The notes below the pieces were generated by a model. It searched no databases. It was not told the DNA's origin and saw only the letters and a program-made list of their open reading frames with translations. From contig OZ316893.1 of the NCBI GenBank assembly GCA_973895155.1, forward strand, positions 11,734,359 to 11,798,358: a stretch of 64,000 bases of DNA, read 5' to 3'. Shown here piece by piece: positions 9,422 to 46,750 of this stretch (position 1 is its first letter; the number at the start of each line of letters is the position of its first letter). The DNA is from Marsupella aquatica. Its lineage: Eukaryota; Plantae; Marchantiophyta. The translations under genes were made by a program, and so were the position numbers.

Positions 9422-9433
9422 TGGTATCAGAGC
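9422..9433 (+). promoter_or_regulatory. Primer binding site for initiator tRNA-Met
   Basis: TGGTATCAGAGC, 2 nt after the 5' LTR. Confidence 0.95.
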
Positions 9434-15000: not shown

Positions 15001-15264
15001 GGATTGGAGCATGGAAAAATGACTCTTCATTGTGACAGCCAAAGTGCGCTTCACCTAGCTATTAACCAGGTTATGGATAGCAGGGTGAAACACATTGACA
15101 TCAGGTACCATTTTATTAGGCAAGCAGTGTCTGATAAAATGTTTGAGCTAGTCAAGATTGATGGAAAGCTCAACCCGGCTGATGCTTTTACCAAAGTGAT
15201 TCCTTTGGAGAGTTACTCAAGACACCGTGCTACTTTGCAAGTTTTGCATTTGCAGCACAAGTAG
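12038..15264 (+). CDS. pol: Copia Pol (protease, integrase, RT, RNase H), in frame with gag after a TGA, with a 1-nt frameshift near 14525
   Basis: WILDCACTYH protease, LWHCRLGH, VHSDVWGP, LRSDNGGEY, KARLVAKGF, LYVDDML, GYVDSDYG. Adding one T at 14524-14526 restores PLAPHFKLSSAFCP and joins ORF 14560-15264. Confidence 0.93.
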
Positions 15265-15457
15265 AGTAACTTAACAATATGTAATTTCTGTATATGGGTT
15301 ACTCAATCCTGTTATGGCTACGGCTTAATTCTAGTTAACCCTTAGTTAACCTTAAATGGTTTTTAGGGGGACACCTATGGTTTTAGGTGATTGTCTAGAA
15401 TTTCCCACTGAGTATCTCATATGGATAGCAGAAATTGCAGTCCCCAAGACTAGAGTC

Positions 15458-15466
15458 AAGGGGGAG
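15458..15466 (+). promoter_or_regulatory. Polypurine tract of the Copia element
   Basis: AAGGGGGAG, 2 nt before the 3' LTR. Confidence 0.9.
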
Positions 15467-15468
15467 TT

Positions 15469-15800
15469 TGTTAAGGATTGCTCTTAGTCTTGTGACTCAT
15501 AGGTTACGGCACTTAGGCTAACCACAGTTAGGATCTTAGCTGAGGTTAGATTAGTCGTGTGTGACCTTGTATATACCAGGGCTAGTGTAAGCCGCTGGTG
15601 GGTGGTGCTTACTCATTGTAACAGAACAACAGGAGGAAGAGAGAGAGCATGTGTGTTCGTCTACTCTTGAAGTAAAGCTTGAGTGTTCGTGTGGACGTAG
15701 CCTTGGAGAAGAGGTGAACCACATAGAGATTGTGTCGACTACGTGTGCATGGAATGAGTCATGGTTGTATGGTCGTTGCGAATGACGTCTTAGTTCAACA
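15469..15800 (+). repeat. Copia 3' LTR (332 bp)
   Basis: Matches 9088-9419 and is followed by TSD AATAT. Confidence 0.97.
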
Positions 15801-16082
15801 AATATAGCAAAAATATCATATAAGAATGGACAAAAATAATAATTCAAGTCATTATATTTTTAGAATTCTAAGATATTAGAGGAAATTAAAGTAAAACTAT
15901 GTAAATAAGATAGGTGGCAAAGACAAAGACTTGACTTGTACTACACCATTTGACCAAAATATTTGACCGCATTACTTGGTCCTTGGTCTTTGGTGGGCTA
16001 CTGTGGTCCTTGGTGGGCTACAACATTTGGTCCTTGATCCTTGGACTTGGTGGGGGGGGTGAACATGGCACATAGATTGTGA

Positions 16083-17790: not shown

Positions 17791-20029
17791 TGTTAGTTTC
17801 TTTGTGAAGGAGGCAGGGGATTGGAGGATGATAGATCAGGATGGCTTGGAGAACATGTCGGATCAGCATCAGACGCCCAGTGAAAGAAAGAAATTGGGTA
17901 GACCAAGAAGATAAGCGGTGTCGTGAAGTTTATGGGCGATGTCGGGAAAGCCCAAGCTTCTGTCTGTTGGAAGAACAATGCGCTATGACGTGCTAATAAA
18001 ACACTACGATCATTACCCAAAAACGCTCAATCATCATGGGAATAACCAATGGAATCGGGGATGAAATGATCATGGTATATGCCGACTCCCCGAAATTTCT
18101 AATGATGAAGGCTCGAAACTCAGTTTTTTGGCGACATATCACCCGAACATTACAATCTATACTAAAATTAATAGGAACTCTATTAAGGTCCATCTTGTAA
18201 TTCAAAATCACAGAACGAGCATTTTGAACATAAGAAATTCACTTACGGTTGTCAATTTCCTTTGTACCATATCAAATAAACCAAGTATTTACTATCCTAT
18301 CATCCCTCAAAGGTTTGAGTCAAAATTTTATCTCCATCAATAGGTATAAAGAAAAATAGTGGACCTATCTAGATTGCAAGTTATAAAGACCTTGTCACCA
18401 TCACCATACTATATATCTCACTTAAAGATAAATATACCCTCGAAACTTTTTCCTAGGCATGACATAGCTTCTTGTCTATTTCCAGGAAAAATTTCAACTA
18501 CGCATCTTATTCTAAGAAAATATTACAAATAATATTCAAACTCAGAAAAATATGGTTCTATTTGAGCATAATTTAAACCTTCAAGTCATCATAACTTTCT
18601 AGTATTATACCAAAATCAAGTGATTCCAAAAGCAAACTTGGTGTGCTCATCAAGGTGATCAAAGTTAGAATACTATTTCCCTAAGAAAAATACATCATAA
18701 TGATTTCCTATATAGTACAATCTTTACTATTTAATAATTTTCTAACAATGTCACATCTCTAGCTTCCAAGCACATTCTATGAATTCTTATACTTCCCACA
18801 CTATTCTTGCACATAAGTTTGGAATAACAAAGAAAACTCACCATGTCACCCCCAAGGGGCAGACCTCTTATTTATAGTGCTTTGGAGGGGTAATGACTCA
18901 CCCCTTTGGTACACATGATCCAATAGTATTTGAACATGTAATCAACAAGGTGTTTGGATGTTTTTGGGCATGTTTCCATGCTTATCCTTGTCGTGCGCAT
19001 ACACATCGCTACACAATATACATCGCTTGTCACACATATCCAAGCATAATCCTAATCCAATAACACAAACATAAGAGAATGGAGTACAAATGGAACCAAT
19101 GTCAGCCCAACGCACCTTGTGCTTCAAGAAATCCACGTTATATAAAAGAGCTCTCAGCCACCATAGCTAAGCTCTCAACTTTAGGCTCAACATCGAAAGA
19201 TAAATCTTTTGATGCCTCACAAGAGAGAACTACTCTCTCACACAAACCTAACAGAACCTTATGGGCTCATATAGCACACATAATAAACATACAGATCTAG
19301 ATAGTATGATACACTTTACTACCACTCTAAATGGTGTGACATCCTCCTTTCGACCCCTAATTGGCCATGTGTTTGATTCTAAATGGACATGCAACCATGC
19401 AAGGCCTTTTGTTACGTGTATGCCACATATCCCTATACATTTTGCTATGTCACAAGTCTAGTGGAAAAGTAAAGCCCTCTTGTAGGTCTATACTCTAGTT
19501 TAGGTTATTTATTCTTATAGCCCACAATATTTTATTTAGAGGTGCTTTGTCATCACTCTAACCCATCATAGTATGCCTAAATTTCGTAACTAGGCATGAT
19601 GAATCACCAACCTTCACACCCAAACTAGTTACTATGTTAAAACATAAAAACATATAACCCACTTATGTGCATATGTAAGTGTGGGTAAGAACAAAGGTTG
19701 TGCGGATTCTTCAACCTCCCGAAGGAATCGCACACCAAAATGATGGACAATGAATTGTCGAAAATAAACTTTCTCCATAACCCAAAACTAAAATTCAACG
19801 TGATTTGGAAATCCAATTGGCGCCCCGTGCACTCCGTCCATTGCTGCTTTCTTGCCTTTGAGTTGTTGTTTCCTCCTCTCGTTCCTCGTCTCTTTATGAA
19901 TCGGCATCCCGCTACAAGCATAGATACTCGACTTATGGTCTTATTTGTCATCTTAAGTCAAGATGTTGCAACCCCAAAATATACCCATGTAACTTAGGTG
20001 TAATGTGTGCACCAAAGTTACCACGACAG

Positions 20030-20708
20030 CGGGCACCAATACGATCCAACACAAAATCATGCAGTTGGCTCTCTGAAAGATCGCAACCAAATGGGGCCCC
20101 CAGATAGAGCTGAATAGAACCTCGCTCATTGATCCTGCAACTAGTGGCACGAAGCCACGGGGGAATGTCCTCCACTGCAAGGGGGATAATGGTCGATTTG
20201 TCCCAGTTGATCTTAGCGTCCCTTGCGGATTCATAGCAACTGAGTGCTCCTCGAGCCTGGTCAACAGCAATAACAATAGTGAGGGTAAAGAAACCCAGAT
20301 CGTCAGCAAAAAGGCAAAAGGAAATATTCAAAGGAGTAATCTGAAGCCCTTGCAGTCGACCAGCATCAATCTCAGCATGACAAAAGTCCATAAAGGGTTG
20401 TGTAGAGATCGCAAAGAGTAGAGGTGAGAGAGGACACCCCTGTCTCACCCCACGGGTCATGCTAATATTTTCAGTCCACAATCCGTTCACCAGGACCTTA
20501 GAACAAGCATTACTCAACAGCGAAGTTACCAAGAAAATGAAGTGGGAGCTCAGGCCCAACAGGTTCATTGTCTCCCAAATGTATGAGTGATCGACCCTAT
20601 CAAAAGCCTTCTCGAAATCAAATTGCAGGAACACCGCAGGGGTTTGAGTGAGGTTGATCCAATCATTCACCAACCAAGCCAGCGAAATGTTCTCAAGAAT
20701 GTGGCGGC
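20030..20708 (-). mobile_element. L1-clade LINE reverse transcriptase fragment, probably the 5' part of the 16083-17790 LINE
   Basis: RHILENI...QFDFEKAFDRVDH...RGVRQGCPLSPLLFAI...LFADDL...LYLGAPFG. Confidence 0.9.
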
Positions 20709-20709
20709 A

Positions 20710-21821
20710 CATGATAAATTTAAAGACTAGGGAATCAGAATTCATGCGGCTATAGATGGTGCTACTCATTATGTTGTATATATGAAGGTTTGTTTAAACA
20801 TTTAATTATCACGGACAATCTATGAACCATATAGAAATGCAATGGATAAATTTGGCCATCCATTGATGATAAGATCTGATTATGCTTCAAAGCATGTTTT
20901 AATAAGAGAAGATATTGAGCAAGCAAGGCCGAACCCAGGTGCAATTTGTGCAGGACCGTCCACTCATAACCAGGTAAACAAAATAATTCATTTTAAAATA
21001 TTTTACATTATCTGAATTTGAAAACATCATGTCTTGCACAAAACTTTTTGTATTTATTTTTCTCAGAGAATTGAAGCTTTCTGGCGCCAACTACGAGAAC
21101 AAGTAACAACATATTTTGAAACTGTGCTTGATACTCTATCCCAAGTTGAAGGATTCTTACAATTGGATAATCCTTGGCATCGCTCATCTATGGCAAATGT
21201 ATTTTTACCAACAATACAATTTTTGGTTAATGATTACATCGAAAACACTTGGAATTGTCATAAAGTGAGAGCTATAAATGAGAGAGGTTGAGACAGACCT
21301 TCTCACATACCAAAGCTTGCTTTTCAAGCTTGTGAGCGAATAGTTGGCCGTGTGCTACCGCCACCTTATGCTGAGGGAAGTATTGCACAAAGAGCTTATC
21401 CAACAACAGGTTTTGAACATTTTGCTACAAATTGGGTGAATCATACAAACCAGGGAGCATTTGAACTTGCTTTAGAAGACCTGGAGGATGAGGTAAGTAA
21501 TTTATTGAAGAATTATTGTAGTGTTATTTTAGTCTATTGTATATTCCTCAAATTATAATCTTATTAATTTGAAATGATGTTGTTATTTTGCAGGACCTCC
21601 GACATCTAAGGGATATGACCTATTATTCTAATCATGATCAATTTAGCATGATAAGTTGTAGATACAAGTTTCATGTTGCACTTACTCTAGAATGTAAGTC
21701 GTGCTTTGAAACAGGATTGTCCTTTGAACACTATTTCCATGACAAGTGTATAGAACGAGAGGTCCCTCCAAGTAGACTTGTTGCAATTAATCTATTGTAT
21801 CATACCTATCAAAATTCTTGA
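20710..21821 (+). pseudogene. Intron-containing DDE integrase-core transposase relic, IS3EU-like
   Basis: Reads HDKFKD*GIRIHAAIDGATHYVVY...FGHPLMIRSDY...GPSTHNQ, then a GT-AG intron at 20974-21066, then RIEAFWRQL...WNCHKVR. A second intron lies at about 21493-21593. In-frame stops are present. Confidence 0.75.
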
Positions 21822-27563: not shown

Positions 27564-29261
27564 GTTATCGTGATTTTCTCTTAATATATAAAAAATTGTT
27601 TGTTTTAATATGTTATAGATTATATAAGTAGTTTAGTAGTTAGATTATTAAATTTAGACTTTATTAAGTTCTTTAGCTATAGTGTCGGACTATAATAATT
27701 CTACCAATGCACAGTAGTTCCACTTACGCATAGTAGTTAAACTACCAACTATAGTAATTCTACCAATGCATAGTAGTTCCACTTACGCATATTAGTTCTA
27801 CCAACTATAGTAATTCTACCAACGCACAGTAGTTCCACCAACGCATAATAGTTCCATCGACGCTTGGTAGTTTCACCTACTAAAAGTAGTTTCACCAACT
27901 ATGAACAGTACTAGCACACTCTTAGGTATTTGATGCTTGCCACTTGGCCTTCATCCGAGTGCTTGGGCTTGATCCATGCCCTCTTGGTGTGCACTATAAA
28001 TAAAGTGGTGAGGGGCACTCTCCCCTCATTTCGCAGTATTTATCATTCAAGGTTGTGAAGCTCTTTGTGCCTTAAACATAGTAGTAAGGCGTCCTTTGGC
28101 CCGGATAGCAAAGGAATGAGTGGTAGACTTATAGATGGGACCTTAGGAAATAAGGTTTCTTTGGGAATTTAGGGGTGGGGCGTCTTTTGGCCCGGATAGC
28201 AAAGGAATAGGAGAGCCATCATGAATCCACTATGAGAGAGAGTTATCCCTGATCTTCCCCTTCGTAATCCGTTTTTGATTAGAGTCCATCTTTTAGATAA
28301 ATCATCCATGAGGCAATATGTAACCTATCATTTTGGAGCTCAGTTTGCAACTGCTATTATGGTTTCTAACGAGGCAATAGTATACTCAGTAGTGTCGTAC
28401 CGAGAGGAGTGAGAGTGCATTATCTTTGTCCTTTATTGAAGTCATGGATCTGAATAGGAGTCCAGCTGATACTCTTGTTTCATTTTCTCTTGGAGATATT
28501 ATGATCGGTCAATTGCAAGCTTGAGGGGGGCAAAAAGGATATCCAAAATCTCCATCAAAAGGATTCCAGTCCTTCCCTTTTTTCAAGGGATGGACAAGGT
28601 GTTACACCTAATGGCCTGGATTGCTTTATTGAGAATGGAAGGTGGGATCTTCCCCTCACCTCCAGCAGTCCATTTGGAAGCGTGCCAGGAGGTTTGATTA
28701 GGAGTAGCGTCCATTAATGATTCAATGGTTAAGGACAAAATGACTTAAAAGGAAGTCCAAGTGGTAATGAATACCAATGAAACAAGACTTAAGTAGCGAT
28801 TTGAATTTCAAAATACTTAATTACGCGTAGACTAAGGAGTCCTAGCTAGGCTCAGCTAGGACTCTACGGAAGAGGCAGGGAGCCATGGGAATTGAAGGGT
28901 TGTCGACTATCTACGGTAATGTTTTGCGGGTTTGCTTCGGGAATTTTACCAGAGAGCTTCTGGCCTCAAGCGGATTCGACGAATTCTAAAGATCATCCAT
29001 AGAACTAGCAAAAAGCTTGGCGACCGTCTTCTGCAATGTAGGGTGTTCACCTCATTGGTAAAGGGTAAGCCGCGCGACATCTCAATGTTGTTAGACTCCA
29101 TTTTTTGTTTGCTTGAGTGCGGGTGTTCCCACATGAATTTCTGCCATCTAGAGCCTCATTTAACTTGGACCATGGCCTCTTTAACTTATGAAATATATAT
29201 TGTTTTGAACTTACGTTCAAAAGCTCATCGTGTTGTAGGAGCTACCATCAATTTTAGCGAG

Positions 29262-32200
29262 ATGCCACCAGTGCGGCGCCAAGCGGGGCGCCAAGATGAA
29301 TCCCAAGAAGAGAAAGAAAAAAGAGAACGGCATAATTTTCGAAGGCGAAAGTCATGGTATGACAAGCCTATTGGGTAGTGCCAAGAGGTCAACACTAAGC
29401 AATTGAATAGAGGCATTCAACCGGAAGACGGCAATAGTACGGGCCTGATTTTTGATGCCAAGCAGCAAGCTGATCAGTTGCTTCTTCATGCTCAGCAACA
29501 AGCTGATCAATTGCTTCTTCATGCTCAGCAGCAAAGTGAGGTATTATTAACTGTTGCTAGGAATGAGGCGCTGCGCTTACATGGAGAGGCAACCGCTCAA
29601 GCTGCGTTGAAGCTGCACAACATCAAGAATGACTGTGCTGAAGGCAAAGAAACATTGTCACGTTTGCGCTCTAGGATAGGGCAAAAGCAAGCCGCCCTTG
29701 AAGTACTGCGTGTGCGATTTGGTGAAGGAGCTCACTGTCTACAAAGCATGCAAGAGGACCCTCATTTGGCCAGAGAATTCAGGGAGAAAGATGCTGCTAG
29801 AAAACGAGCTGCATATTGGAGACTTCGGAGGATGAGAAGTTTAAGTTTGTCTAGTCATCTTGCTGAGGAAACGCCCAATAGAATGAGATGAGCGGTTGAT
29901 TCAGTGGTCTCCGAGGTAACTTCAGTCTTATTCAAAAAAATGAGAGATTTCAACTTATCCGCAAGGAAGGTAGTCCTAGAGCAATTTTGGTTGCATTCTT
30001 CATTGAGAGAATATCATCCTGCAGCTCTTGGGACCCCTAAGTTAGATGCATCTGTAGGAGCTACTATAACTGACCTTAGGCAGACCTTGCAAATTGTGAA
30101 GTGGGGTAAAAAGAAAGATCACTTGGCTGTAAAGCATTCAGTGTTGGTAGCTATGGTCGGACAGTCCACGGTTGGCAAGCGATATCAGTCCTCTTTAGCT
30201 AAGGCTTTTGGTATCAAGAGACACAACATTCAAAAAGCATCAAACATGCGGAAGCAGATAGATGAGAACCAATGTATAAAATACCCAATGGGGGAAAGGA
30301 AAACCAGGAGTGACAAGATTAGTGCAGAGGTGCGCAAGATTATTGAACTATTTTGGAGCACATACACTAGAATCTCACCAGGCAAGAAAGAGATAGCTAG
30401 AAAGCGACTTGGACCAAATCAACATGAGGAACATAAAGTACATTGGCTCGAGGATACAGAGGTAGGATATCCTCACATTGGCTACTTCAATTTCTTTGAG
30501 AGTTCTTAAAATTTTCTGCATTCTTTAGTCCCGTCTTCAGTTGTAGCCAACGATACAAATTTGAGAGCCTGAATTTGGGTAATCTATTAACACCCTATTG
30601 ATGTCTATTTACAGGTTGAATTTTTCTTCAAGTTCCAAGATTGGTGCAAGGCTGAGAACAATGCTGAAGGACCGCAGGCCTATAGTTATCTGAAACCGTT
30701 TTACATTCGAACCATGAAGGATCGAAATGTATGTTGCTGCAAGCAGCACATTGAAATGGACCTCCTGAAAGAGGCACTAAACAAATTCAGGAAGTTTCAT
30801 CACCCCTCTGAGTGTAGTTGTCAGTGTTGTACTTGTAAATCAGTGGCCATTCCATTAGGTGTTTCTTGTGTAGCTTCAAGGACACACATTACCTCTGTTC
30901 GAGGTTGGATGGAAGGTGCGCTGTGTAAGAAAACCGAGGGGCAGGTATGGCACAAGAAGGACTGTATTATGGGAGTTTGTGTAGATTGTGGAACGCTGAA
31001 TTTGGACTGGTGTCCATGGGAGTTGGATTCCACACAACAACTAACTATTAGTTGGCAGAGTTTTGAATATCAGGAGTTAGATGACAACTTACAAATGAAG
31101 AAAGCAAAGAAGAAGGGAAGTGATGAGAGTTCACAAAAAAAGTCTAAACGCTTGAGGATGGTGTATAAGACTACGTCTGTAAGTGATTTCAGGAACGTGG
31201 TCGAAGCTAGAATGAAGTCATTTGTTGTTCATGATTTTAGAGCTCGCTGGCAAAGTGACCAGTTTAGATTGTGTTTGAAGACGTTCCCAAGAGGAACCAT
31301 AGTGTCTTCAATTGACTTCTCTGACAATTACACTTTCAAGACGCAAAATGAGATTCAATCGCAACATTGGGACAACAAACAGATTACTTTGTTGATCCAT
31401 GTGACCTATAGACATCGAGAAGATGTGCACCAATCTATGGAGGCTGCAGTGGGACGGACAGTGAGTATGGCACAGAGTGAAGCTGGTGACAGAGATATCA
31501 TCGCCGACTATCATTTCTATATCAGTGATGATAATACTCACGACACCTTGTTTGTGCAGCATTGCATGGATGCTCATTACCATTGGATGAAGCAAGAGGG
31601 AATTGAATTCACTCAGCATTGGGTTTGGGTCAAAAGCAAGCTAGAGGGGTACCAACGGAGTCCCCAAGGACTAGCTCAAAAAGGAGAGTGAAAGGAGTAT
31701 AAATGTCATTAAGATTTAGCTGAGCACACTCCCAAAAAGGTTGGGCACACTTCCAAAAAGATTGTGCACACTTCCAAAAAGATTGGGCACTCTTCTTAAA
31801 TTCCGAAATATGTGGACACACTTCCAAAGATTTGGCATGCAAGATCTTACCTTTCAATCTCACCAAAACAATCCTGGCCATTCCATGTAACATTTTGGTC
31901 TTTTTGTCCTCTAGTGATTGCTTTTACCAAGGACCTATGTCCTTTTGGTGGAGAAAATGGTGATCCTTTCAGTACCCCTCTAGCTTGCTTTTGACCTTTG
32001 GTCCGATGGAGCTACCTCACAATTTAAGGCTTGTAGACCTTTCTACTACGTCTCAAGGTATTACAAGAGATTTGGTGCACGGATGAAATGGTTTTTCCAT
32101 GCTTCAGGACATGGAAAGGGTGTAGTTGTAAGTGTGGAACTCTACCTCCAATATTTGAATTCACTGTGTTGTTCTCATTATTTAGTTTCATATGAGCTTC

Positions 32201-33129
32201 TTTACCGTTATACAAGAACATTATTCTTTGGAGTCTAGTTGTATGCTTGTGTGACATTGAATGGACTTTTTCTGCATGGATAGGATGCCCTTGGAGGCCA
32301 CATCAAGAGCGGGATACAGAGAGAGCAGTTGAAGGGGACGCATGACTTTCGCTTGGAAAATGCTCATGATGTAGTTGCATTTTGCAAGGAGAAGTTTGCC
32401 ATTGGTATTGAGAGAGAGTATGGTGATGTTTTGCTTGTGAGGCGATTGTTTTGGGAAATAGGTGCTACAACTGTGAATCGGCACAAGAAATGGGACTGTG
32501 ATGCAATCCCAGGATGTAGAGCAATGCATTGTTTTGATGGATTTAGTAACCGACTTTCAACTCTGTTGCAAGTGAGGGAACTATGCTGTTTTTGTGCTTA
32601 CTGTCTTGATGAAGAACCACAAAAATGTGAGAATCGAGATCTTGTAGGACTGTATAAGCTTGAGATGGTGAAAGAGATTCTCCCTATTGATGTCAAAGCA
32701 GACCTTGAAGAAATGGGAGTTGGTGAAGGACTGTTGGAAGGGGACTCTGGGTCTTTGGCAGAGTTGGTGCAGTTGGGTGATTTCTATGCAGTGGAAGCAG
32801 AGCGTCCAAATCGTTGGGATGTAGACTTTTACATTTTGCAATGCGAGGAGGTCCTACATGATGTCACAGAGACATTTGTGGATGGATACGAGCAGGAACT
32901 TCAGCAGGGTGAACTGGTATTGAAGGGCAAATGGATGCAACCAGTTCCAGGATTGTGCCACACATATGTCTATTTAGACAAATCACCACCAAGTTTTAGT
33001 CTTGCAAAGTCAGTAATTCACATTCGATTTGGGCTAAGCCCATGTGATACTTCAGGACGGAAGGGTGGTAGCAGAAAGTTCAAATTGGACAAAGACACAC
33101 TTGCAGCAATTACAGATTCTTTGCGATGA
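29262..33129 (+). pseudogene. Sola2-type DDD transposase, 3 exons (29262-30461; 30615-32127 minus the MITE; 32284-33129), inactivated
   Basis: CCCKQH and CKK...C..C..CG Cys motifs; HDFRARWQ; IDFSDNY...QNEIQSQHW..QITL; ISDDNTHD; HWVWSDGATSQFK; FHASGHGKGVV|DALGGHIK. GT-AG introns 30462-30614 and 32128-32283 keep frame. Stops at 29376 (TAG) and 29889 (TGA). Confidence 0.85.
31628..31996. mobile_element. 369-bp MITE with TIRs related to the host Sola-like element
   Basis: Perfect 25-bp TIR GGTCAAAAGCAAGCTAGAGGGGTAC; 4-bp TSD TTTG at 31624-31627 and 31997-32000. Removing the element and one TSD restores W-V-W-S-D-G. Confidence 0.95.
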
Positions 33130-33379
33130 TGAGAGAATCGTCTATTGAGGTAAATTTCTGAATTGCCCAACTTCCTACTTTCCTTGCAATCTACATCAAC
33201 ACTTTCATGCACTAGCTTAACCATGCAGTGCAATACAATGTCATTGAGCTTTGCCCGTAACCCATCCTTAGTGCGTCCATGTGTAAGGATTATGTTCTTA
33301 TGTAAAGACATGTCCAAGGTGTCCTTGCTATTAGTAAGGACTCCTCTACATAGCGACTCCTTTTGGTTTGATTGCATGT

Positions 33380-33750
33380 CTAGGACTCGGTCATTTTACA
33401 AGGACTAGGACTGTGTCCTTGGACAAGGACAGAGTCATATTGGAAAGGACCATGCAAAGGACCATGTCCTTTCAAACGGACTAAAAAGGATTTGTGAAGG
33501 ACTATGTCCTTTGTGAAGGACACATTCAAGGACTATGTCCTTGACTAAGGACATATTCAAGGACTATGTCCTTGGTGCAAGTCATGGTAATTAAAGGACT
33601 ATGTCCTTGGTGCAAGTCATGGTAAAGGACTAGTTCCTTAGTTAATGACACAGTCCTTAACCGTAGAAAGGACCATACATGTCCTATATCCTTTTACATG
33701 GACTTCACAAAGGACTCTCCCAATGTATACTAGACTGTGTCCTTGTGTAT
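33380..33750. repeat. Array of AAGGAC/GTCCTT motifs (mini-hairpins) downstream of the transposase
   Basis: aaggactatgtcctt and variants recur throughout the interval. Confidence 0.8.
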
Positions 33751-34894
33751 TAAGGGTCTCGGAGATATATGTGGCCAGATAACTAGCGACAATGCTTATA
33801 TGAGAATTCTTTGAGCTGCTTGTATGAATGCGTTCTATTTTTTAGGTGGTTGGGCCTTTGTAAATTTGCAATCAGGTACTTATACAATTTGTACTGGTGT
33901 TTTGCGTTTTGAACACAGACTAAACCTTCAAGATACTTCGGACAGGACTACATCATGTAGACTAAGGGACACTCTGGATGACATACTCTAGATGGTAGAG
34001 ACTGAGTGACATACTCTAGATGGTAGACTGCCACTTTTTGGCACTCGGCTCACAAGATAATCATGTTTGTAATATTTCATGTTAATGGATCTGCATTTCA
34101 TCACTTAAGGAATTTTTCCTTCTCATTTCTTCAAGGGCCTTGTGGACATGATGTGCCTTGATTTCCTTGCGTGTGGTTGTACCTTTCTGTAAGCATATCT
34201 GAATCATGCACAAAGCAATTGTTCAGATAGAAACGGTTATTAAGTCTCTGTTTATGTCACACTTGATGACAATAGTACGGGACATCCATTTGTGGTCTCA
34301 AACTTTCTGTTGTCAGGTGTACTCTACAAAAGTATCAACTCAAAATAATCCCTTGGATTACACACTATTTCAGGGCGCTATTTTTGTACATTCAAGATTT
34401 TTGCAAGTATATACCAATCCACACTTGTCACTTCCAGCCAACTTCTTCCCACCGTATAGCTGCCTTCCAAGTTACAAAACCTCTGGTGCCCATTTGTCTC
34501 CTCGAGGATTTAGTGCAAAGAACACAGGTTTACTCACATGTCAATCAAGATATACCTCAACTAAAATATATCATCTAGACCACCTATTGAAGGAACTTCC
34601 AAGCTTCTCTTGAACAGTTGTGGTCTTCATGCCCAGAGACTTAAGTGTTAGAAAGGAACAAAACTGAAGTAACATATTGATCAGAGGCGCATCCATAGAC
34701 AAGAATTGAGGACTCAACACATATACAGAAGCTTGTGTTGAGACAACAACACTGTATTGATCAAGTACTTTACTGTATAGAGTTTGAGCTTGAAACAACA
34801 TCCAGTTCAGTGTGGATTTCATACCATCACTGGAATACAACAGTCTGCTACATACTATAGCACTCTAATTACTCCTCCGAAATACGAAAAGACT

Positions 34895-35572
34895 TCAAAG
34901 ACATGACGAGGTCTCCAGAAAAGTCCAAAATAGCACGTAAAGTCTCTGAAATGATGTTGCTCCACCATCTTTGGTGGTATCAAGACAATCACCAAAATTG
35001 GGTGAGGTACCGATCTTAGTCTTACTAACATTGGGCTTAAATTCATCTCTGTCCGAATGATTTATTATAGCGCGAGTAGCTTCATCTACCTGCAGATGCC
35101 CACGAGCCTTAACAATACTCACTGCTCGAAGGTCATCACTACGGCCTAACTTTGCCACACATGTGATGGTCCACAATTCACTCTGCACCTGCCCACAGAC
35201 TTCTTGCACCTTCTCTGGGCTACTCTCCCATAGCTTCTTAAAGGCTTCTCCCGACATCCCCAGTAGCTGCAACCCGCAATCTTCATTCACCAAAATAACG
35301 TAATCCCCGACTTGCACAGCAAAGCAGTACATAAAACTGCCAGTTCCAACACTACAGCAGACATGTTCGGATCGTCCTCGAGAACGAGGACCCACGGGAG
35401 ACTGAGGGTTCAATTTTCTCAGCCTGCGGGCATTCTTGCCCAAAGTGCATGGCTTACCATCACTCAACAAAACATTGCAGCCTTCATAAACAAATGACCC
35501 AGCACAAACTCCCCACATGTGGTCAATTTTGATATCCACCAGGGTGGTGAACTTGTTCTCAAGATTGTCCAT
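34895..35572 (-). CDS. RPA70 C-terminal-like zinc-ribbon OB-fold protein, putative ssDNA-binding, transposon cargo (3' boundary uncertain)
   Basis: FVYEGC(x9)C...HVCC...MYCFAVQVGDY..NEDCGLQLLGMSGEAF parallels RPA70C YxAC..C...C..C...RYILxxxIxDxTG...FxExGExILGMSAxEL. Acceptor-like tgcag just before the ATG at 35572. Confidence 0.6.
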   Translation of the reverse strand: MDNLENKFTTLVDIKIDHMWGVCAGSFVYEGCNVLLSDGKPCTLGKNARRLRKLNPQSPVGPRSRGRSEHVCCSVGTGSFMYCFAVQVGDYVILVNEDCGLQLLGMSGEAFKKLWESSPEKVQEVCGQVQSELWTITCVAKLGRSDDLRAVSIVKARGHLQVDEATRAIINHSDRDEFKPNVSKTKIGTSPNFGDCLDTTKDGGATSFQRLYVLFWTFLETSSCL

Positions 35573-35669
35573 GATCTGCACAAAGATAATATATGAAGGG
35601 TTACATATCAACTATTGGTCACCGGATGGTTTCTCTTGCAAACTAAAGAGGATCTCAATCCGGCACCCT

Positions 35670-36020
35670 GACTCAAGCACCTCAAGTCCTGACTAAAGGA
35701 GCCCCAGTCTTGACTAGAAGACAATACTGATCATCAGTTACCCGTAGTCCTGACTAAAGGACTGGAGTCCTTGAGTCAGGACCGGGAGTCCTAACTAAAG
35801 AACCACGAGGACCGGAGTCCTGACTCAAGGACCCCGAGTCCTGACTCAAGGACCCGGAGTCCTCACACAAGGACCACAATTCCTGACTCAAGGACCCCGA
35901 GTCCTGAATCAAGGACCCGGAGTCCTCACACAAGGACCACAATTCCTGACATGAGGACCGTGACCCCCAACTCAAAGAGTCCTGAAGAGTCTTGACACAA
36001 GGACTTGGAGTTACTGACTC
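35670..36020. repeat. Tandem gagtcctgactcaaggacc-type repeats between the cargo genes
   Basis: Repeated 18-20-bp units, including a higher-order duplication of about 60 bp. Confidence 0.8.
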
Positions 36021-36286
36021 CACGACCTACAAGTAGTGCAAATCATACAGAGCAATGAACATAAGCTATGGAGAGAATCCAAAAAGGAACTTACACAGAG
36101 CTCAATACTGGGACTTTTGGCCCCGATGTGCATGAGTTTGCTGCACAAAACAAAAACTAAGTTAAAGCAAACCTTTCTTGAATGCATCTTCTAACAATTG
36201 TCACCATAGCTCTCCTCACTACAAACTGCAGATGCACAATTTACATTGGAGAGGGCAATGATTTTTCCTGGATCATAACTTGAAAG

Positions 36287-38995
36287 TCAATCATCCACAG
36301 GAAGTTTCCTTTGGGAGGAATGAGCGGGAATAGTCACAGTAGGTGAGTTTCCGCCAAGTGCTTGACTCAAGAATCCAAGAGGTGTCTTCACCAACACCAA
36401 ACGCTTATAATTGACATGAACGCCACACTCAGGGGAAAAAGGTATTGTATCTGGACTCGACAACGTTTGGCTACAGTTCACCTTCCTAGCTGATTCTTGT
36501 TCAACCTTTCGTTTCTTCCCCGACTCCCCACCCTCTACTTTTGGTGTCACCAAAGGTATCTTAGACGATCCGTCCTCAGGCTCATCATCGCCTATATCAA
36601 TGATGGAAGTGGCCTCCATGGCGCTCAAATACATGAGAGCTTGGCCGTGAGAATCCCCCTGAAAATACAATCACCGAATAATTACAGGAGTTGACAAAAT
36701 CATACGGGTGCAAACATAACAGGCAAAAATGTGTCTACAAACTATAAAGAGATGTGCAGGCACAAATAATTCAGAAGATTGCTTTACAAATTCAAACCTG
36801 TGATTGAGCTGTTTGAACTATCCGCGAAACCTCTCTTCGTCTTCCCAAACATCTGCCCTTCTTCCCATACATATCTTTTAAGTCTGTTATGTAAGAATGC
36901 CGTGATTCAACCGGACTTGGTGATGCATATGAACTTGGTAAACCCCAACTTCGCAACCAATCATCACTGAAGGCATAGGAGCATGCCAAACACTTAGCAC
37001 TCTGTTCTGATGAACCAAGTATTGGAAATAGACAACTCGGATGGTAGGTGTGCCCACAAGATGCTGGAATCCAGTTGAAGCAATGAAACCCATTGCAACA
37101 CACTGGACAAACAGTAAGTGAAGCTTGGACTCCTACAGATCGACAAGAAGTAGGAATAAAACGAGGAGCTAACACAGGGCAAGGATGCTTCAAAACTTTG
37201 TTTAAAATGGAATGTTCCTGAGATTGAGCTTCCAGAAGCTCCTCCACCCCCTTAACGACAATCTCCCTTTCTTCCACGACTTTGGTCAATCTTGCCACCT
37301 TGCTTGGCAAGTCTTTGAACATATGATCTTTGTCGGTGTGGAGCATCCTCAACACAGTCAACTCATCTGAAATTCATCTTGACCGGGAGTTCAACATCTC
37401 AATTGTGGCCTCATGCTGCTTCAGATCAGTCTGAAGGTGTGTCAAGTAATCGTTGGGGGTCTGTCATAAAGAATAAAAAACAGAGTGTCATTCATCAACT
37501 CACAAATCATATTAGCTGCAAGCTACTAATCTCAGATTTCCAACGTTAGTGAAGAGAATAAATAGAAAGTGCGATAAAAACTAATGTGGAAATTGATCAG
37601 AGTGAAACCTCATCGTCTTCACATTGGTTGCCTTCTTCCAACTCAATGGCATTCGTGGTTTCTTCATGCTTCTCTTCTTCATTTGATACTGAATCCTTTA
37701 CAAGCTTCAACTCCTCCTCTAGTTTGCAAATTTGATGATGAATCCGCTGCAGTGCACTTCGCCGGTCGCACTCTGAAGATTTCAAATTTTCCAGGCTTCG
37801 AAGAAGTTTCTGAACATCTTCGCGGGCCTCTCTTACTTGGTTCTTACTCCATGACATTTCTGATTCAAGCATGGATAGTAACAAGGCACGAGGGGGGGTA
37901 CTTGGCAACTGCGCAAGAGTGGAAGGACTTGGCCGCACCCACGGAATAGGGGAGGCAGATGCAGTACCAAGTAGCTCAGCAGGAACTTTTTCGAGGGAAA
38001 GAACATCCCATCCGCTCTCGGGGATTGGAGACTTCATCGTTGGCTCTTTCAAAGAGAGGCTTGAAGGAACTCGGGGAGGAACTGCCTCATGAATTGCATC
38101 CTCAATAACTTGTGCATCTGCGTGCTTATAGACACGACCAGTCTTCCTTACACAAGGGGGCCCATTAGGCTTACCTTTGCCTTCTCTATGCCACTGAACA
38201 ATCTGGCCTTTCAACTTAGATGCAGTGTATGCGGCCCAATTAACTGTCCTCCCCAACACTCGCTCAGCATACACTCCCTTAACAAATGTATGTGCCTTGG
38301 AACACTCCATTGACCGGCTTCTCATATCCATCGACAACTTGGGATAAATGTAAGACATCCTCTTGTGGCAAGCCTGTGCAACTACCTAGTTTGTAACCGC
38401 TCCGTCCCTTATCTCCAAAGCACGTGACTAGCATTTCCTCACTGATGTCAATGATTCTATGGAGATTTTCGCCTTCATTCGGAAGGCCAAACTGGGTAGC
38501 AAAGAAGTGAGCGTCCTTGTAAAAATTGGCTGGATCCCATTCGTTGTCTGTCGCCTCTGAAGCTGGCTTCACTCTACCTTTAGATTTCTCAATAGATGCT
38601 ACCGCTCGAGCAACACAATCATCTGAACTGGGTTTTCCTTTAGAGAGTTTGACTAACACAGACCCGGCTGGATCCCATTCGTTGTCTGTCGCCTCTGAAG
38701 TTGGTTTGACTCTACCTTTAGATTTCTCAATAGATGCTACCGCTCGAGCACCACGATCATCTGAACTGGGTTTTCCTTTAGAGAGTTTGTTGACTAACAC
38801 AGACCCGGTTGAGCGTTCTTGAGGAGAGTTTTCTAATGACCCTACACCCTCACCTCCATCAACGGGCAATGGAAGTGGGTATCCATCAAAACAACTATGA
38901 AAAGTCCTGACTAAATCTGATGAGAGTTCTGGTAAATCTAAAGTAGAGAAGGTTACGTCAAATATCGATGAAAGGAAGTAGAATAGGTGGTGCAT
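36287..38995 (-). pseudogene. Spliced cargo gene: helical domain, coiled coil and RING-H2 finger (5' end uncertain)
   Basis: Exons about 38995-37609, 37460-36798 and 36658-36287, joined by phase-0 GT-AG introns. CPVC(x13)CGHTYHPSC(x13)CLAC is C3H2C3. Frameshift near 38300 and in-frame TGA at 37374-37376. A 46-47-aa tandem duplication lies at about 38529-38808. Confidence 0.72.
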
Positions 38996-41900
38996 TAGGT
39001 ATCAAAGTTACAAGCGTACCCTCAGTCTGGCCTGCGGAGCACATCACGCTCATGAAGTAGCACTTCCACCCAAACCTGTGCAAACTCTCCATGCCCACAA
39101 CATGTCAAAGACCATGTATGCAACATTTGCACCATCGTTGATTTGAAAGTTCTTGAGTTTACAAGCACCTATCGCCGAACGCGTTGCGACTGTGAGGAAT
39201 ATGAAGGTCTATCTAGAATTGGTTGAAACTGCAACAAAGCAACATTTGCTTACCCGAGCTCTAAACCAATGTCACCAAACCGCACCACCTTAGAAAAGAT
39301 TTGAAAGAATAGAGAGTCCGCAATGCTATATTTCCTTCAAGCACTAAAATTGAAACATTCGGCGGAACTCCTCAACGTTCATTGTCGACATTTACTGTCG
39401 ACATCCACTACTTTGCGATATTCAGTCTCGTTCAGTCTCGCCACCATTGTCATTGACAATCCCCTAAGCCTCCCAAACAAACTACTTTGCGACACTACTC
39501 GGCGTTCACTCCCCCCGCCACTGTCGTTGAGTATCCCCAAAGCCTCCCGAACATCTGGAAATCTAAGGCACAGCAGGCCCCAGCGGCCAATTCCTCACCG
39601 TTGATGGAAACCCGCGGATGGCACGGAAGCCGCGCGGCTATTTCAAACTTGGCGGCGATTTCAAACTCTGGGAATGACGGAACTGGTCCCCTCCTTCTTC
39701 TCTGTGGAAGGACCTTAGTGGCTAGAAATGATGCGATGTCCTTTTGCGTCATTAATTCCTTCACGGGGTTGAAGTCCTTGGTGGCCCCACTATCCTTCAA
39801 TCTTGATCGTTGATCTTCATATCACCACAAGGACTACCTCTCCATTTTGGTGATCCTTTTTGCGTCCTTTTGCCCCCCTCAAGCTTGCAATTGACCGATC
39901 ATATGTCGTAAGAAAACTAATTTTTGTGATGTGTTGGTCCGCAAGTATGGTGAAATAGGGTTTAATAGTATATTAGTTTCACCTGAACCTTTCTTAATAC
40001 CCACTACTTTTGTTACTAGAATTATCATTTTAGTTTTAGTGTAAAACTTATGGACATGCAAGGTTAACTTCATAAGAGCCAACATGCTCTTACCAAAAAA
40101 CACGGTCACCGGACATAAGTGGCGACCATACTAGGGAATCGCTGGATTTTGAAGTTAGCTTGTGCATGTTTAAGTTCTAATGGATGGAGAGAGATATGAT
40201 TTTGGAACTTTGAGTCTTTAACTTGTTTATATTATTAAGTCAAGAGGGAAGAATTCCAATCATGGGAACTGAGATGAATCCAACTGACATGGAGAGGTTT
40301 TCATCTTTGATTGTTGCTTACTTACATGGAATGAAGAAGAAGGAGATGGAGGAGAATAAGAAGAAATAGTTGCTTGGTAGGATCACAAAGTACCTACACT
40401 CGGTTCTTACATAGCAAGGAGAATTTGATGGGCGGAATGCAACCAAGTAACTCAAGGGGTGCTGGACGGAGGCTACAGTTCATAAGATGGATGCAGAAGT
40501 TGCAATCAAGGAGTTTGTATCTTTAGTAGAACCTGAACTCAAGGGAATTGTTACTACCTTGATAGATGGAGCTACTGGAGAAAAGGCATGGAAGGTCTTT
40601 GAGTTGAAAATGAAATAAGAATTTCAGCTTGAAGATCCATATCGGGTTACTCAAGCATCTTTCCTTGATTGGATGACCGATAGAAACAAGAAGTTGGGAC
40701 CTCAAGAGCTGATAAGGGAGTTTACAAAGAAGTTCAATCAGCTTCCTGAGATTGGTTTTGAAGTTATCAAGGTACAGAAGGCTACTTTACTTAACCAAGC
40801 TGCTGATGAGAAACTTCAAGATGAGTTAGAACTTGCTCTGGAATTGATGAACCCAAGTCGTGGAGCCAGTCCACCAACTTGGGAGGAGATTGAGATTGTT
40901 GTGCTTAGGGTCAGCCAAAAGCATAGAAAAAAGAAGCTGAGTCATGAAGGTGCTCTAGATGCGGTTGCACCTGTGACTTCTATGAGGAGAATGGAGAAAA
41001 TGAAGTCAACAATTGGTAGGGGTGAGAAAAGCATGGACAAAATGGATGAGTTGTCTGAACTCATGAAAAATCTTACTATTCTTGCCACCCAAGCCTTCGA
41101 GCAGATGGGAGAAGGTGCATCAAAACCAGCGCCAAGAGGTGGTCCAGGAGCTGGGAGTTTCATTGGTGGAGCAAGGAGTTGGAATTGTATTTGGTGTGAC
41201 AGCAAGGAGCACTCGAGCCGTGAATGCGGGGAGCTTTTTGTTGCTCTGAGAGAGAGTATAGTCAAGTTCATTGATCATGATGGCATAAGAAAGCTTGTTT
41301 ATCATGATTCAAGATAACTTATTCCAGTAAACACAAACAAGGGCGGTATGAAGATGTTGGTGGAGAGAAGAATAATTGAACATCATACTTCAACCATTGC
41401 ATCAGCTTTTGGAGATCAGGATGAGCATGAAACAGATGTTTACACCTCTTTGGGAGTTCTTCATCAGCAGAGACAAACAAGAAGAGACTAGCAGAGTTTG
41501 TAAGGTGGAAGTCAGGTTGGAGTGATCCAGTATTGATTTCTTCTTTCACTATAGAAGTGGGATCTCTATGGGATTCTATGGTGGAGGAGAAACAAAAGTT
41601 GTCGGAACCTTTGGAAGAACGTGCTAAAGGAAAACAGAAGGTTGAGCCTGGACCCTCTATTTTGCAGCCATCATCAGGAGTCCCAACAAGGAGGAGTGTT
41701 CAATTTGAAGATAGAGGAAGTACAACAAAGGAGCCTACTTTGACTCCTTCATCCTCAAAGGAGATGGAAGTGGTAAAAAAAGAAGGTGGAAAAGAAAGGA
41801 CCTGGTTGGGTCCTTGGAAGAGATGTTGAGTAGCACATTGCGTATGATCAAGTTGCTGAAAAGTTTTGGAAAGCGAAGGTGAGTGGAGTCACCAATGAGG

Positions 41901-44214
41901 AGTTTTTTGCTTGCATGAACTCAAAGGCTCAAGATGCATTACTTGCAAAGGTGAAACAAAAACACTTTTACAAAGAAGGACCTCATGCCTTGGGAATGAA
42001 GGTTTTTTCTGATGTTGATGAAGATGGAGAAGGTTCAATTGTTTCTCAAGCCAGTGTGGAGTGTGAAGTGTATCAAGTGAATGCGGAGAAGATCCCTAGA
42101 CCACAGATGCTAGGGTCTTCAACAAAGGAAGTTCCTGAACCAAAGATGTCAAGAGTTGAGGTATTGGAGAGGTGAAAACCATTGGTGAAAGCAACAACAG
42201 GATTTGAGTGACCCAGGATATGACAAAAATTAGTCGAGAAGAGGTGCTCAAGGCCTCACAAAGTGTGTGGGTCATGTGTGCTTCAGCTATGAAGAATCCT
42301 GATTCAGGAGACGACAAGGAGTCCATCTTGGAGCCATTTTGGGCAAGAACTTGCTCAGTTGTGAAGGTAGAGCTTGTAGGAATGGAGGGCAAAGCTTGAG
42401 CATTGATTGACACAGGATCTGAGGTGAATCTGATGTCAAGAAGCATCTATGATCTTGGGCAATGGATGATTGATTGTGATACTCAATGGTCTGTCAACTC
42501 AATCAATCGTTCAAAGAATATACTTTGGGGAGGATGCCCTATCTGAGTATCAGTGAAGGTTGGTCATGTGATAGAACCAACTAACATCTTTGTGCATGAT
42601 AGCTTGCCCTATGATCTCATTCTAGGGCAACCTTATATTACTCAAACTCGAATGAAGTACACTTAGATCCTACCAGATGGCACTCATATGGCAAAGGTGA
42701 GGAATCGAGATGAATTGCAAGTTATCCAATTTTTTGTAGTGAAACCTGGACATTGGAGGAATCGAAAGGAGTTGAGAGGACCTGAACCCAAGGAGGGAAA
42801 TGAGGATTTCCGAAAGGCATCTCGTTAAGCAATTCGGGAAGGTGGGGCGCCATCGCCAATGACCCGCTAGTGACTTGGAATGTGAATAGTTTGTTGGCAA
42901 GCTCATTTGAAGGTGAAAGTTTACATTGTCAAATTTCTTATGTGAAAGTGTGCGAAGCTACTAAAAAATTCAAACAGAAAATTGCATGGATTGAGGATAC
43001 TATGCAAATACATGGATTGCCTAGAGGAAAGTGAAGAGATTGAAGACCTTCTAGATGAAGAAGTAGAAGTGTTTTTGAAAGAAATAATTGAAGGTCTTTC
43101 AGGGAAGAAAGCTCATATAGAAATCAATCATGAGCTGTATGGCGAGTTGTCTCAATTTGTTGAGGACAACACCAAGTACAAAACAGTGGAGAAGAAAGTG
43201 AGACCAACAACAATTCCTTTATCTTTGGATGCTAGGGAGATTTTGGAGAAGGCTGGTAAAGAGACCAGTCTTAGAGATCGGACTAAGATTGGCCATAAAT
43301 TCACGAAGGAGACCCTTAATCAACTAAGGATTGGTGATAATGGGTTGCTGACAAAATAAGAGAGAGAGGAGTTTTGGCAAATGATTGGTGAGCATGGTAA
43401 GGCTTTTGCCTTTTGTCCTGAAGAGATCATGGGATGTGTGGATCTTAGTGTTGTTACTCCTATGGTAATTTTCACTGTCCCACATGTTCATTGGGACTTG
43501 AAACCCATTCCAATGCCCAAGGCTTTGTTACCCAAACTTATTGATCTATTGAAGGAGAAGCTTTCCACTAGGATTTTGGAAAGAGCAGATGCACCTTATT
43601 CTAATCGTTGGTTTATCATTCGTAAGAAAAATGGTAAACTTAGATTTATTTAGGACATGCAACCACCTAACAAGGTTACTATTTGCAATACTAGAATAGG
43701 ACCTATAGTAGATGAGTTTGCGGAAGAATTTGCTGGTAGAGTGTGACGGAGTTTCCGTCACCAAAATCCTCAATAATTGTCTACTGGGTTGTGCCATGTA
43801 AATAACCATTGTAAATAAGCCGTTTTTTTAATTTTTGAGTTAATTCCGTTCTTTCAAGTTGGTGCTACCAAGAGGACTTTACTTTATTTCCTTCTCAAAA
43901 TTGTTCTAAATGGTCACGACAACCTTAGGGGGGCAATGGTGGCCTGGCCATTTTGCTTGAACCATTGTCAAGTTCCCCCTATAAGTCCAAGGGGTTAACT
44001 TTTCTTTTTGGGGTTAAATGGGTATAACCACAACAAGGGCCAAAAGAAGAGAATGAGTTCTTTTGAGAGGTTAAAAGTTGTTGGAGTAAGGACGCCACCT
44101 GGCATCTCCATAAGGTAAGTCGGGGCGCGGGAGGCAACCGAGGCGCATGGCAAGAAGGAGCTGGGGGGATTAAACCCCTCTTGAGGAGCCCTCTTAATAG
44201 GGCCCCGCGAATGA

Positions 44215-44450: not shown

Positions 44451-44827
44451 GTAAAGGGGGTGTCGGCAAACAAGGTGCAACCGCGAGGGAAAATTAGCAA
44501 AGGAGCCACGGGGTTTCCTTTTTTTCCTATTTTCTCACTCCCTCTCTTTTGCAAGACTAACTCTTGCCGAAAGCAAAAACTCGGGCTCTCTCTCAACTCT
44601 TGCCGAAAGCTCTCTCCACATTTTGCAATTATTCTGGAAGCTCTTTCTCATGGTCAATTGTTGGGGCTTGTTGGCATGATTCTTCCAGGCATTAGCGGCA
44701 GCAGCACGGAGTGGTTTCTGGGGGAATTGAGGGTAATTGATTGATTGGGATACGGGGGCCGTTTCGGGCCAGGGAATTGACATTGCTACGGGTGATGGGA
44801 ATTGGTAATTGAGGATTTGATTTCTGG

Positions 44828-46750
44828 ATGTTGGATCAACCGGAGTTTAGTGCGGCACGCATTTGGAGATACAAGGCTGCTTACCGTGACTACATTGAGA
44901 CATTGATTGCAAGAGAGAGAGAAGAGAGAGAAGCTACGATGAGTACTGGACTGGCGGCAAGTTCCGCACCGGTGAGTAGGAAGGTTTTCCGTCAAATTTA
45001 TCCCAAAACCTCCGCCAAGGTGATGGAGGATTGTGGGAATATTTTTCTGGCCACCGGGCTCACGGAGTTCATGAAGGTGGAGATTACAATCCCTTCGGGG
45101 AAGAATTGGAACATTGAGGCCGGGATGGAGTTACGCACGGAAGGAATCTACTTTGAATGTCTCCAACGGGTACTGCCCCATGTGGAGTTAGCTAAGCTTC
45201 TATTTCTGGAGAACCAACAATTCTCATTCACACCTCAAAACATAAGGGGAGAGCTCACGTTGACAATGGTGGCCGGTTGGGTGATTAATCCCACCTCCAC
45301 TACTTCCATTCCTCTTTCCGCCGTCAAGGATGCTGAGCACAAGGGATTTCTGGCCAAGGTTCATCAATGGATCCTTGGTAACGTGCAATCCGGGGTGGTG
45401 AATGGAGAGAATTTCGTGGTAGCTATGGACATCCAGCCCATGTGTACGGATGGTGGTACTACGGGTTGAAGAAGCTATTGGACGCCGATCCCGGGAGTGT
45501 GAAACCAGGTGGGGCTGTACATTTGATGGGGTCATTTTTGCTGGCCAGAGCAAAAGGGTGGATTTTTTCCTAGGGACAGGAAGACTCTGGATCATCCCTT
45601 ACCACGGAAATCAGGAGTATTGCCACTACCATCTTGGGGAAACTAACGGAGGGATCATCGTCGGCGGTTGGGAATGATAATAGAGAGGAAGAAAACCAGG
45701 ATGAGGACTCCACATTGGAGTGACTTGAATCACTTGTGGAAGATCCGGAGGAGCCCCTGGTCTACGACATTCCTGATGTCTACCTAGCGGAGTTACGGGA
45801 TTTCCGGCAGGGAGTTCATGAGGGACTCAAGCTAGTCCACGCATTGAGAGATTCTCTCAAGTAGGCCACCGCCAGAATAGAGACTTTGGAGCACAGTGCC
45901 CTATCTATGAAGGAGGTGATCAAGGCCAAGGAGGAGGCCATTCATGAGAAGGTTAATCTTCTCCAAGCAGCTCACGTAGAGATCTCCAACTTGAAGGGAG
46001 CCTTGTCCACCAAGGCCAAGGAAGCGGAAGAGGTTGGAGTATTGAAACAAGCATTGGCCAAAGAGAAGCAGAATTCTGGAGAGGTGGTGGAGTTAAGAGC
46101 CCAGGTGGGAGCACTGCGGAGTCAAATGGTGATCTTTGAGACAAGGGCTAAGAGGAGTGAGGCCTTGAGTCTGGGGAAACGGAAGAGCCCCTGCACACCT
46201 AGCTCCACACTTTCCCCGAATTTGATCTCCAGGGCCATTGAGATGGTGGTAAAGGAAGTCAGTGGGAAGTATGGACCCCTGTTGGATGCCGCCAAGAAGA
46301 GTCAAGAGAAGAGCAAGAACTTAGAGAAGAAGCTCAGGGAGGTACGTAAATCGTTACAGGAGGCTCAGGTCAACGCGAGGACCCCAGGGATGCCACCGTG
46401 ATCTTTCACCCCTGGGACTCCCATAGCCACCGGGCAGGTTTTACCGTTGGAGTTCCGGTCCGGTGAAGAGGCTGCCTTATGGAAGGACACCATTGGTGAG
46501 GGGTACATCAAAGCATGGCAGGCCTTGGCCATTTGAGGAAGCAGGGGAGCACTAGCACAAGGAGTACCCCGGTGAAGAAAAAGAGGGGTGAAGTGGCACT
46601 CACTCCAGTGGAGAGTGATGAGGAGGCCCACTCACGGGGCTCAAGCCAGGGCACCGTGAGTGAAGAGGAGGAGAATTAGAGTGGTCGTACGGATGTGGTT
46701 GTACGGCCCCTTGACTTTTCCACTTTTTTGTGAGGGGTCACTCACGGGCT
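44828..46750 (+). pseudogene. Decayed accessory ORF (helical N-terminus and coiled coil) inside the 4-kb insertion; 3' end approximate
   Basis: ORF pieces 44828-45469 and 45886-46401 (E/K/L-rich heptads) separated by stops and a frameshift; coding-like sequence continues past TGA 46401. Confidence 0.55.

Follow-up and report, generated by a model that had tools for sequence, protein, structure and literature searches.

An RPA70C-like zinc-OB accessory gene, probably undescribed, lies in a dead copy of a plant-lineage Sola2 element in the window, i.e., the whole 64,000-nucleotide stretch of Marsupella aquatica DNA analysed here. We consider it very probable that this minus-strand gene is an accessory gene of the cut-and-paste transposon around it and that its product has a zinc-bearing OB fold of the RPA70 C-terminal type. 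Searches of the open literature, outside Repbase and most subscription papers, turned up no DDE/D element with an OB or RPA gene.

The carrier element

By its sequence, the carrier is a Sola2 cut-and-paste transposon of 11,390 bp (28507-39896) with 29-bp terminal inverted repeats (TIRs) and a 4-bp target site duplication (TSD). Its ends and its transposase gene were located as follows.

28503..28506, no strand: left TSD, GATC (4 bp), from the empty site in the repeat and the contig joints of X1, X2 and X3
28507..28535, plus strand: left TIR, 29 bp, perfect, beginning GGTCAA
29250..33129, plus strand: spliced Sola2 transposase gene, from motif order, homology and tblastn, with predicted start and splice sites; the first exon ends at 30461, followed by 30615-31627 plus 32001-32127 and by 32284-33129
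31628..31996, no strand: MITE, 369 bp, with 25-bp TIRs that also start GGTCAA and the TSD TTTG, splitting the region of the second catalytic motif
39868..39896, minus strand: right TIR
39897..39900, no strand: right TSD, GATC

The element is inserted in a high-copy repeat, and contigs of runs X1, X2 and X3 join position 28502 to 39897 with four shared letters, from which we read the TSD as GATC. The first-pass annotation had placed the OB reading frame within a cut-and-paste element, and it does lie between the TIRs of a DDE/D element. A 36-bp inverted repeat was also considered as the TIR and proved overstated: the target site is palindromic, so this repeat is too long, and the MITE together with the empty-site joint fixes the end at GGTC. 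The surrounding non-coding repeat (27567-40116 and 61716-62834) is about 1.1 kb long with internal tandem units; the first copy is filled by the Sola2 element, while the paralogous copy at 61716-62834 is empty.

The transposase motifs at 30729-32284 (a zinc-type C/H cluster, DF.xNY, Q.EIQS.HW, SDD..HD, SDG...Q.K and HGKG..D..GG..K) follow, by eye, the same order as the published Sola2 alignment (PMC3627910, Additional file 10). The Sola group is defined by 4-bp TSDs in the part of PMC10741241 consulted. The nearest named relatives of the transposase come from Calypogeia fissa and Riccia sorocarpa, with 59% identity to the C. fissa protein P0093, which by itself makes a liverwort the likely source of the window. 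Amoebozoan Sola2 elements have in common with the present one the ordered transposase motifs, the 4-bp TSD and short TIRs; however, their TSDs are AT-rich in the families of PMC3627910, whereas those found here are GATC and TTTG. According to extracts of the same paper, their cargo is Fanzor1, carried in the 3' part, whereas the land-plant lineage of the window carries a RING gene and an OB gene, both convergent to the transposase. Searches of the literature outside Repbase and the founding Sola paper turned up nothing that fits a Sola element of bryophytes.

The copy in the window is broken. The first transposase exon contains stops and the gene is interrupted by the MITE; two frameshifts and one further stop add to this, and related contigs are free of the MITE, the frameshifts and this further stop. 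The MITE itself is missing from contigs of X1, X2 and X3, where the joint skips 373 bp. This MITE, with its host element's own terminal bases, sits in the very transposase that is likely to mobilise it. At 29193, 33588 and 38297 the window has 4 bp more than contigs of X1-X3 (at 38297 as a direct ATGT duplication), and these insertions may be footprints of excised elements with 4-bp TSDs.

Transposons are nested throughout the window. A Copia-type LTR retrotransposon occupies 9087-15801; its 334-bp LTRs agree with each other at 99.4%, and its gag-pol is almost complete but split into three parts. The translated reading frames at 40100-43700, 19948-20793 and 57683-58468 contain decayed remnants, recognised by eye, of reverse transcriptases of the Gypsy-like and LINE-like kinds. 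Long reading frames with coiled coils and low-complexity tails stand at 2217-5869 and 44813-46401, and we take them to resemble the extra genes of retrotransposons.

The OB gene and its limits

34872..35572, minus strand: gene or exon for the RPA70C-like zinc-OB protein, with about 234 codons if intact, from AlphaFold2, Foldseek, VIA-align and homologue matches; OB fold at residues 1-157, then a linker, then a conserved C-terminal segment at 34937-34872
35576..35590, minus strand: predicted splice acceptor (pyrimidine tract and CAG), one codon 5' of the ATG, with a Gln-Met junction in 7 homologues

The minus-strand reading frame at 34895-35611 and the motifs quoted for it earlier (YEGC..C, HVCC and YCFAVQVGD) are present in the window as described, while the coding sequence differs from it at both ends. 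The start is given by the splice acceptor at 35576/35575 and the ATG at 35572, not by 35611. At 34937 the window copy is one base short relative to contigs of X1 and X2, and the shifted frame beyond it (34937-34872) matches the C-termini of all seven homologues tried; we therefore place the true end at 34872 in the other frame. Of the original span, 34571..35611, the part with the OB reading frame stands, but a second reading frame at 34571-34864 found no convincing counterpart in a comparison set of 117 proteins (best E=0.13) and, as far as its sequence tells, is probably 3' UTR.

Whether the OB gene is a gene of its own or the last exon of the upstream gene ORF2 was judged from its homologues. 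Automatic gene models often fuse RING and OB parts, with junctions that differ between models, and one R. sorocarpa model (P0041, 242 aa) consists of the OB part alone. A methionine stands at the start of the OB domain, within one residue, in 8 of the 19 proteins that reach well upstream, and in 7 proteins the domain-start methionine is preceded by glutamine, the codon of a CAG acceptor. The residue after it is G-initiated (A, D, E, G or V) in 30/41 cases against a background of 34%, a count in which related families are not independent. The conserved start-like methionine, the Gln-Met junctions and the G-initiated next residue favour a separate OB gene with an intron in its 5' UTR, so that translation from its own ATG seems somewhat the better choice over fusion to ORF2.

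Fold, family and metal site

The sequence evidence for an RPA70C-like fold, taken alone, is weak. The Pfam family Rep_fac-A_C (PF08646) matched the OB reading frame with E=0.008 and 16.4 bits, below the gathering cut-off of 28.5, and 4/59 family members at E<=0.1 (best 0.024). RPA70 chain 4gnx_C was the sole match among PDB sequences, at E=1.5, and a profile of the 59 sequences found nothing there at E<=10. Structure prediction bears out the fold that had been proposed. The alignment folded comprised the window's 165 residues and 58 relatives, none longer than about 250 aa, and the AlphaFold2 model of the OB domain reached a pLDDT of 90.8 and a pTM of 0.80. All five Foldseek matches at E<=0.001 were C-terminal chains of RPA70 (4gop_C with E 4.4e-5 and TM 0.62). 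The best VIA-align match was again RPA70 (1l1o_F, Z 11.8, rmsd 4.2, 136 residues aligned), with Teb1 OB-C tied at Z 11.0 and the C-terminal OB folds of CTC1 and POT1 at Z 7-8; these proteins have the fold in common with the OB protein. The suggested comparison with Rep_fac-A_C is thus positive for structure, i.e., for the RPA70 domain DBD-C, and under the cut-off for the Pfam score.

A profile search of 1.84 billion representatives at E<=0.001 returned 88 cluster representatives, of which 6 long repetitive matches with multiple stretches were removed (3 of the 6 were inspected). The resulting family comprises about 82 unannotated clusters with less than 50% identity to each other, and the members with a named source belong to the liverworts R. 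sorocarpa and C. fissa. A first-pass scan of metagenomes with the OB alignment gave 359 pattern matches, none of them confirmed, and a shared-word search for longer homologues yielded 0/5984 candidates; the later profile search did recover long ones. Many members look decayed, with Tyr in place of Cys.

Four putative metal ligands are conserved in the family, C32 in 50/57, C42 in 52/58, H70 in 57/58 and C72 in 51/58 sequences, as are arginines of the insert, R49 in 46/58 and R65 in 45/58, together with R52 and R67. We predict a C2HC zinc site, C-x9-C-x27-H-x-C, with an arginine-rich insert. The RPA70 zinc ribbon has four cysteines in two close pairs, and one of these pairs is visible in the 4gnx_C alignment. 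This corrects the zinc ribbon claimed at first: the conserved putative ligands are C32, C42, H70 and C72 in place of four paired cysteines.

With DBD-C of RPA70, or RPA1 (PF08646), the OB protein, as predicted, has in common the OB fold with its helical cap and an insert that follows the first strands and binds metal. It differs in being transposon-encoded, in its single OB domain, in the predicted C2HC site in place of the four-cysteine ribbon and in an identity of only 8-16%. No RPA or OB family of Pfam was found upstream of the domain in the 8 homologues of 375-819 aa that were scanned (0/8); what precedes it in long homologues is a coiled coil and a RING finger, not the OB domains F, A and B, and no RPA1 occurred among the characterised matches of the family. 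Given the single domain, the low identity, the other zinc ligands and the absence of RPA1 from those matches, the idea of a captured RPA1 gene does not hold in any recent sense. The OB protein is not a member of RPA1 and may at most act like one RPA domain.

Between the OB fold and the C-terminal segment lies a linker of variable sequence, about 55 residues long. The segment is conserved and amphipathic-looking and lies outside the folded model; binding of RPA32/RPA14 is a candidate role for it. If it served this role, the protein could be a decoy of host RPA, a lone DBD-C-like domain whose C-terminal helix replaces RPA70 on RPA32/RPA14 and dampens damage signalling while the element transposes. 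The fold match to the chain of the RPA trimerisation core and the conserved segment agree with this, but the low identity to RPA70, the position of the segment far from the fold behind a variable linker and the cost of RPA poisoning to the host make such a decoy improbable.

The RING accessory gene

36482..36658, minus strand: predicted exon 3 of ORF2, an acidic/basic linker with a lysine-arginine cluster (C. fissa P0045, E 4e-7)
36798..37460, minus strand: predicted exon 2, encoding a coiled coil as well as a RING-type finger (weak Pfam RING matches; homologues)
37609..38995, minus strand: predicted exon 1, N-domain (about 38570-38150) and coiled coil, start uncertain

ORF2 is a second accessory gene, upstream of the OB gene on the same strand, whose RING finger the first-pass annotation had missed. 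If unspliced, the frame of exon 3 runs to a stop at 36287. The window copy has 4 extra bases near 38297, which shift the frame, and a premature TGA at 37376-37374; contigs of X1 and X2 have neither lesion and show a sense codon at the TGA position. Gene models of R. sorocarpa and C. fissa keep the order of N-domain, coiled coil, RING, linker and then OB. The RING finger of ORF2 suggests an E3 ligase. The N-domain, also conserved at L004:8367-8732 on the minus strand, was modelled from 10 sequences with a pLDDT of 81.8; Foldseek found no match to this model in the PDB and viral sets, and the best hit of a wide structural search had Z 3.1.

Linkage of the OB gene to the element

Contigs of X1, about 99% identical to the window, cover the transposase, the OB exon and ORF2 with depths of 92-125; in X2 the identity is likewise about 99%, and the three parts are similar in depth. 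Some junction contigs of X1 have a depth of 13-16 against about 100 for the element, but the depth of Logan contigs is not a copy number and gives only a hint of several element copies. X6 and X7 bear the labels of other organisms, and their similarity to the window is highest at the OB and RING motifs; silent changes made up 5/10 variant codons in X7 and 2/3 in X6 among those listed, which are few and selected. No single contig among those of the X runs spans both the transposase and the OB exon, and the few transposases and OB proteins with a named source do not have adjacent accessions, so linkage of the two outside the window is indirect.

Plant Helitrons carry RPA homologues (PMC4683698), so that the OB gene might belong to a piece of a Helitron within the TIR element. 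Flowering plants, fish and cnidarians all have Helitrons for which such homologues are described (PMC4683698, PMC6431247), and in the portions of PMC4683698 consulted RPA-type proteins are presented as ssDNA binders in repair and in Helitrons. Like the OB gene, the plant Helitron RPA (PHRPA) is a spliced gene for a transposon-borne RPA-type OB protein beside a transposition enzyme. However, PHRPA has several ssDNA-binding sites and a RepHel carrier, whereas the OB gene belongs to a Sola2 element with TIRs and TSD and without RepHel, and PHRPA is reported only from monocots and dicots in these portions of the paper. The check for Helitron termini that had been proposed found, in a simple scan of both strands, no end with hairpin and CTRR between the transposase and the right TIR, and a similar scan of the element for Rep and helicase motifs found none except one chance DExxM. 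No contig joint in X1 or X2 skips the OB exon, which argues against a separately nested fragment, and the TIRs and the 4-bp TSD are in place. On this sequence evidence the Helitron origin is already largely refuted, and we regard it as very improbable.

We also compared related transposases on metagenome contigs, at 80 loci, of which 20 extend at least 8 kb downstream. A RING gene lies 4-8 kb downstream in 15 of these 20 long contigs (11/14 after merging look-alikes by eye), always on the opposite strand; the RING profile was iterated on the same loci, which inflates the scores of the included matches, although first-pass matches exist. The OB profile matched 0/80 loci, including the 15 with a RING gene, and the decay of the loci weakens this test. 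Within the limits set by this decay, transposition in the wider lineage thus does without the OB gene. ORF2 seems common to the Sola2 lineage as a whole, and the OB gene may have been added in liverworts. No TIRs of related elements were found in the long metagenome loci, and no Pfam family matched at E<=0.001 any of 92 open stretches of at least 62 aa between transposase and ORF2 at 12 loci.

Between the RING gene and the transposase, i.e., at the OB position of the window, some loci have SET-like fragments (L036/L037, with L037:8720-8914 on the minus strand, and L050:5245-5550, also minus). They match between locus groups with a tblastx E of 2e-9; Pfam SET gave E=0.098 for L037 and no match for L050. 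Their position suggests an exchangeable cargo slot, as far as these sequences go. An old captured host fragment, carried passively without benefit, would fit the failure to detect OB in related elements on other contigs and the many decayed members with Tyr for Cys. We nevertheless find passive cargo quite improbable, as about 82 clusters of less than 50% identity keep the metal ligands and arginines, similarity in two other organisms is concentrated on coding motifs and related contigs have intact frames.

Repeat arrays and possible roles

33321..33744, no strand: non-coding AAGGAC/GTCCTT array, 23 copies, between two convergent 3' ends
35666..36004, no strand: AAGGAC-rich tandem repeat with a unit of 21 bp, inside the intron predicted 5' of the OB exon

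AAGGAC, a motif chosen after looking, occurs 48 times in the 11.4-kb element (42 non-coding) against 35 times in the other 52.6 kb, and arrays of it also adjoin the TIRs and occur in the MITE. These arrays and the SET-like fragment of relatives point to chromatin instead of repair. VANDAL elements of Arabidopsis encode VANC anti-silencing proteins, whose targets often form tandem repeats (excerpts of PMC5735166). By analogy, ORF2 and/or the OB protein would bind the AAGGAC arrays and block or remove silencing, while the RING finger marks a host factor to be degraded. The mostly non-coding concentration of the motif in the element and the SET-like fragment at the OB slot of L036/L037 and L050 fit this. 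The N-domain model gave its longest alignment with VANC21 (9lnk_A, 100/122 residues, rmsd 4.0, rank 8), but the Z of 2.4 is at noise level and the sequence had no match to VANC; the arrays near the TIRs and in the MITE may equally be transposase sites. RPA-type OB folds are not known as readers of double-strand motifs. An anti-silencing role, possible if doubtful, is almost as good an account as the roles in ssDNA repair or RPA interference.

The account that we put forward, tentatively and at somewhat less than even chances, is that the OB protein is an ssDNA-binding helper at the excision gap that, with the RING protein, steers host repair to re-copying. The donor break would be resected after excision, and the resulting single strands would be bound by the OB protein, which may oligomerise by way of its C-terminal segment, with zinc presumably held by C32/C42/H70/C72 and the conserved arginines of the insert contacting nucleic acid. 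The RING protein would then modify host repair factors, and the gap would be refilled from the sister copy. The fold match, the conservation of the family, the integral position in the element and the ORF2-OB order in the Riccia and Calypogeia models support the helper role. The host RING ligases RAD18 and RFWD3 act on RPA-coated ssDNA. In RPA the domains A and B provide high affinity, and domains of the DBD-C type also make protein contacts; the OB protein is missing the high-affinity A/B domains, and a shared fold, here a modelled one, would by itself indicate no function.

Other DDE/D elements also carry a second protein for DNA processing or anti-silencing. Kolobok lineages have accessory nucleases, a RecQ helicase and KolX (PMC9587614), and VANDAL has VANC; no OB fold is described for them in the parts of these sources consulted, whereas the window element combines OB and RING.

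Cut-and-paste elements multiply only via repair of the donor gap from the sister copy or via movement during replication. We hypothesize, in a speculative way and with the chances leaning against the whole, an old undescribed land-plant Sola2 lineage with a host-manipulation module (a new-fold N-domain, coiled coil and RING ligase) and an exchangeable third slot, in which the liverwort OB protein, a minimal one of the RPA70C-like type, labels the ssDNA of excision gaps, so that cut-and-paste ends in a net gain of copies. If true, this would be the first case of an RPA-type protein in the service of a DDE/D element, and a transposon that encodes an ssDNA binder next to a RING ligase would offer a direct handle on whether transposons steer such repair. 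Even without a role in repair, the OB genes form a sizeable unannotated family with a new zinc-OB variant, and genes of the plant Sola2 lineage are currently listed as hypothetical host proteins.
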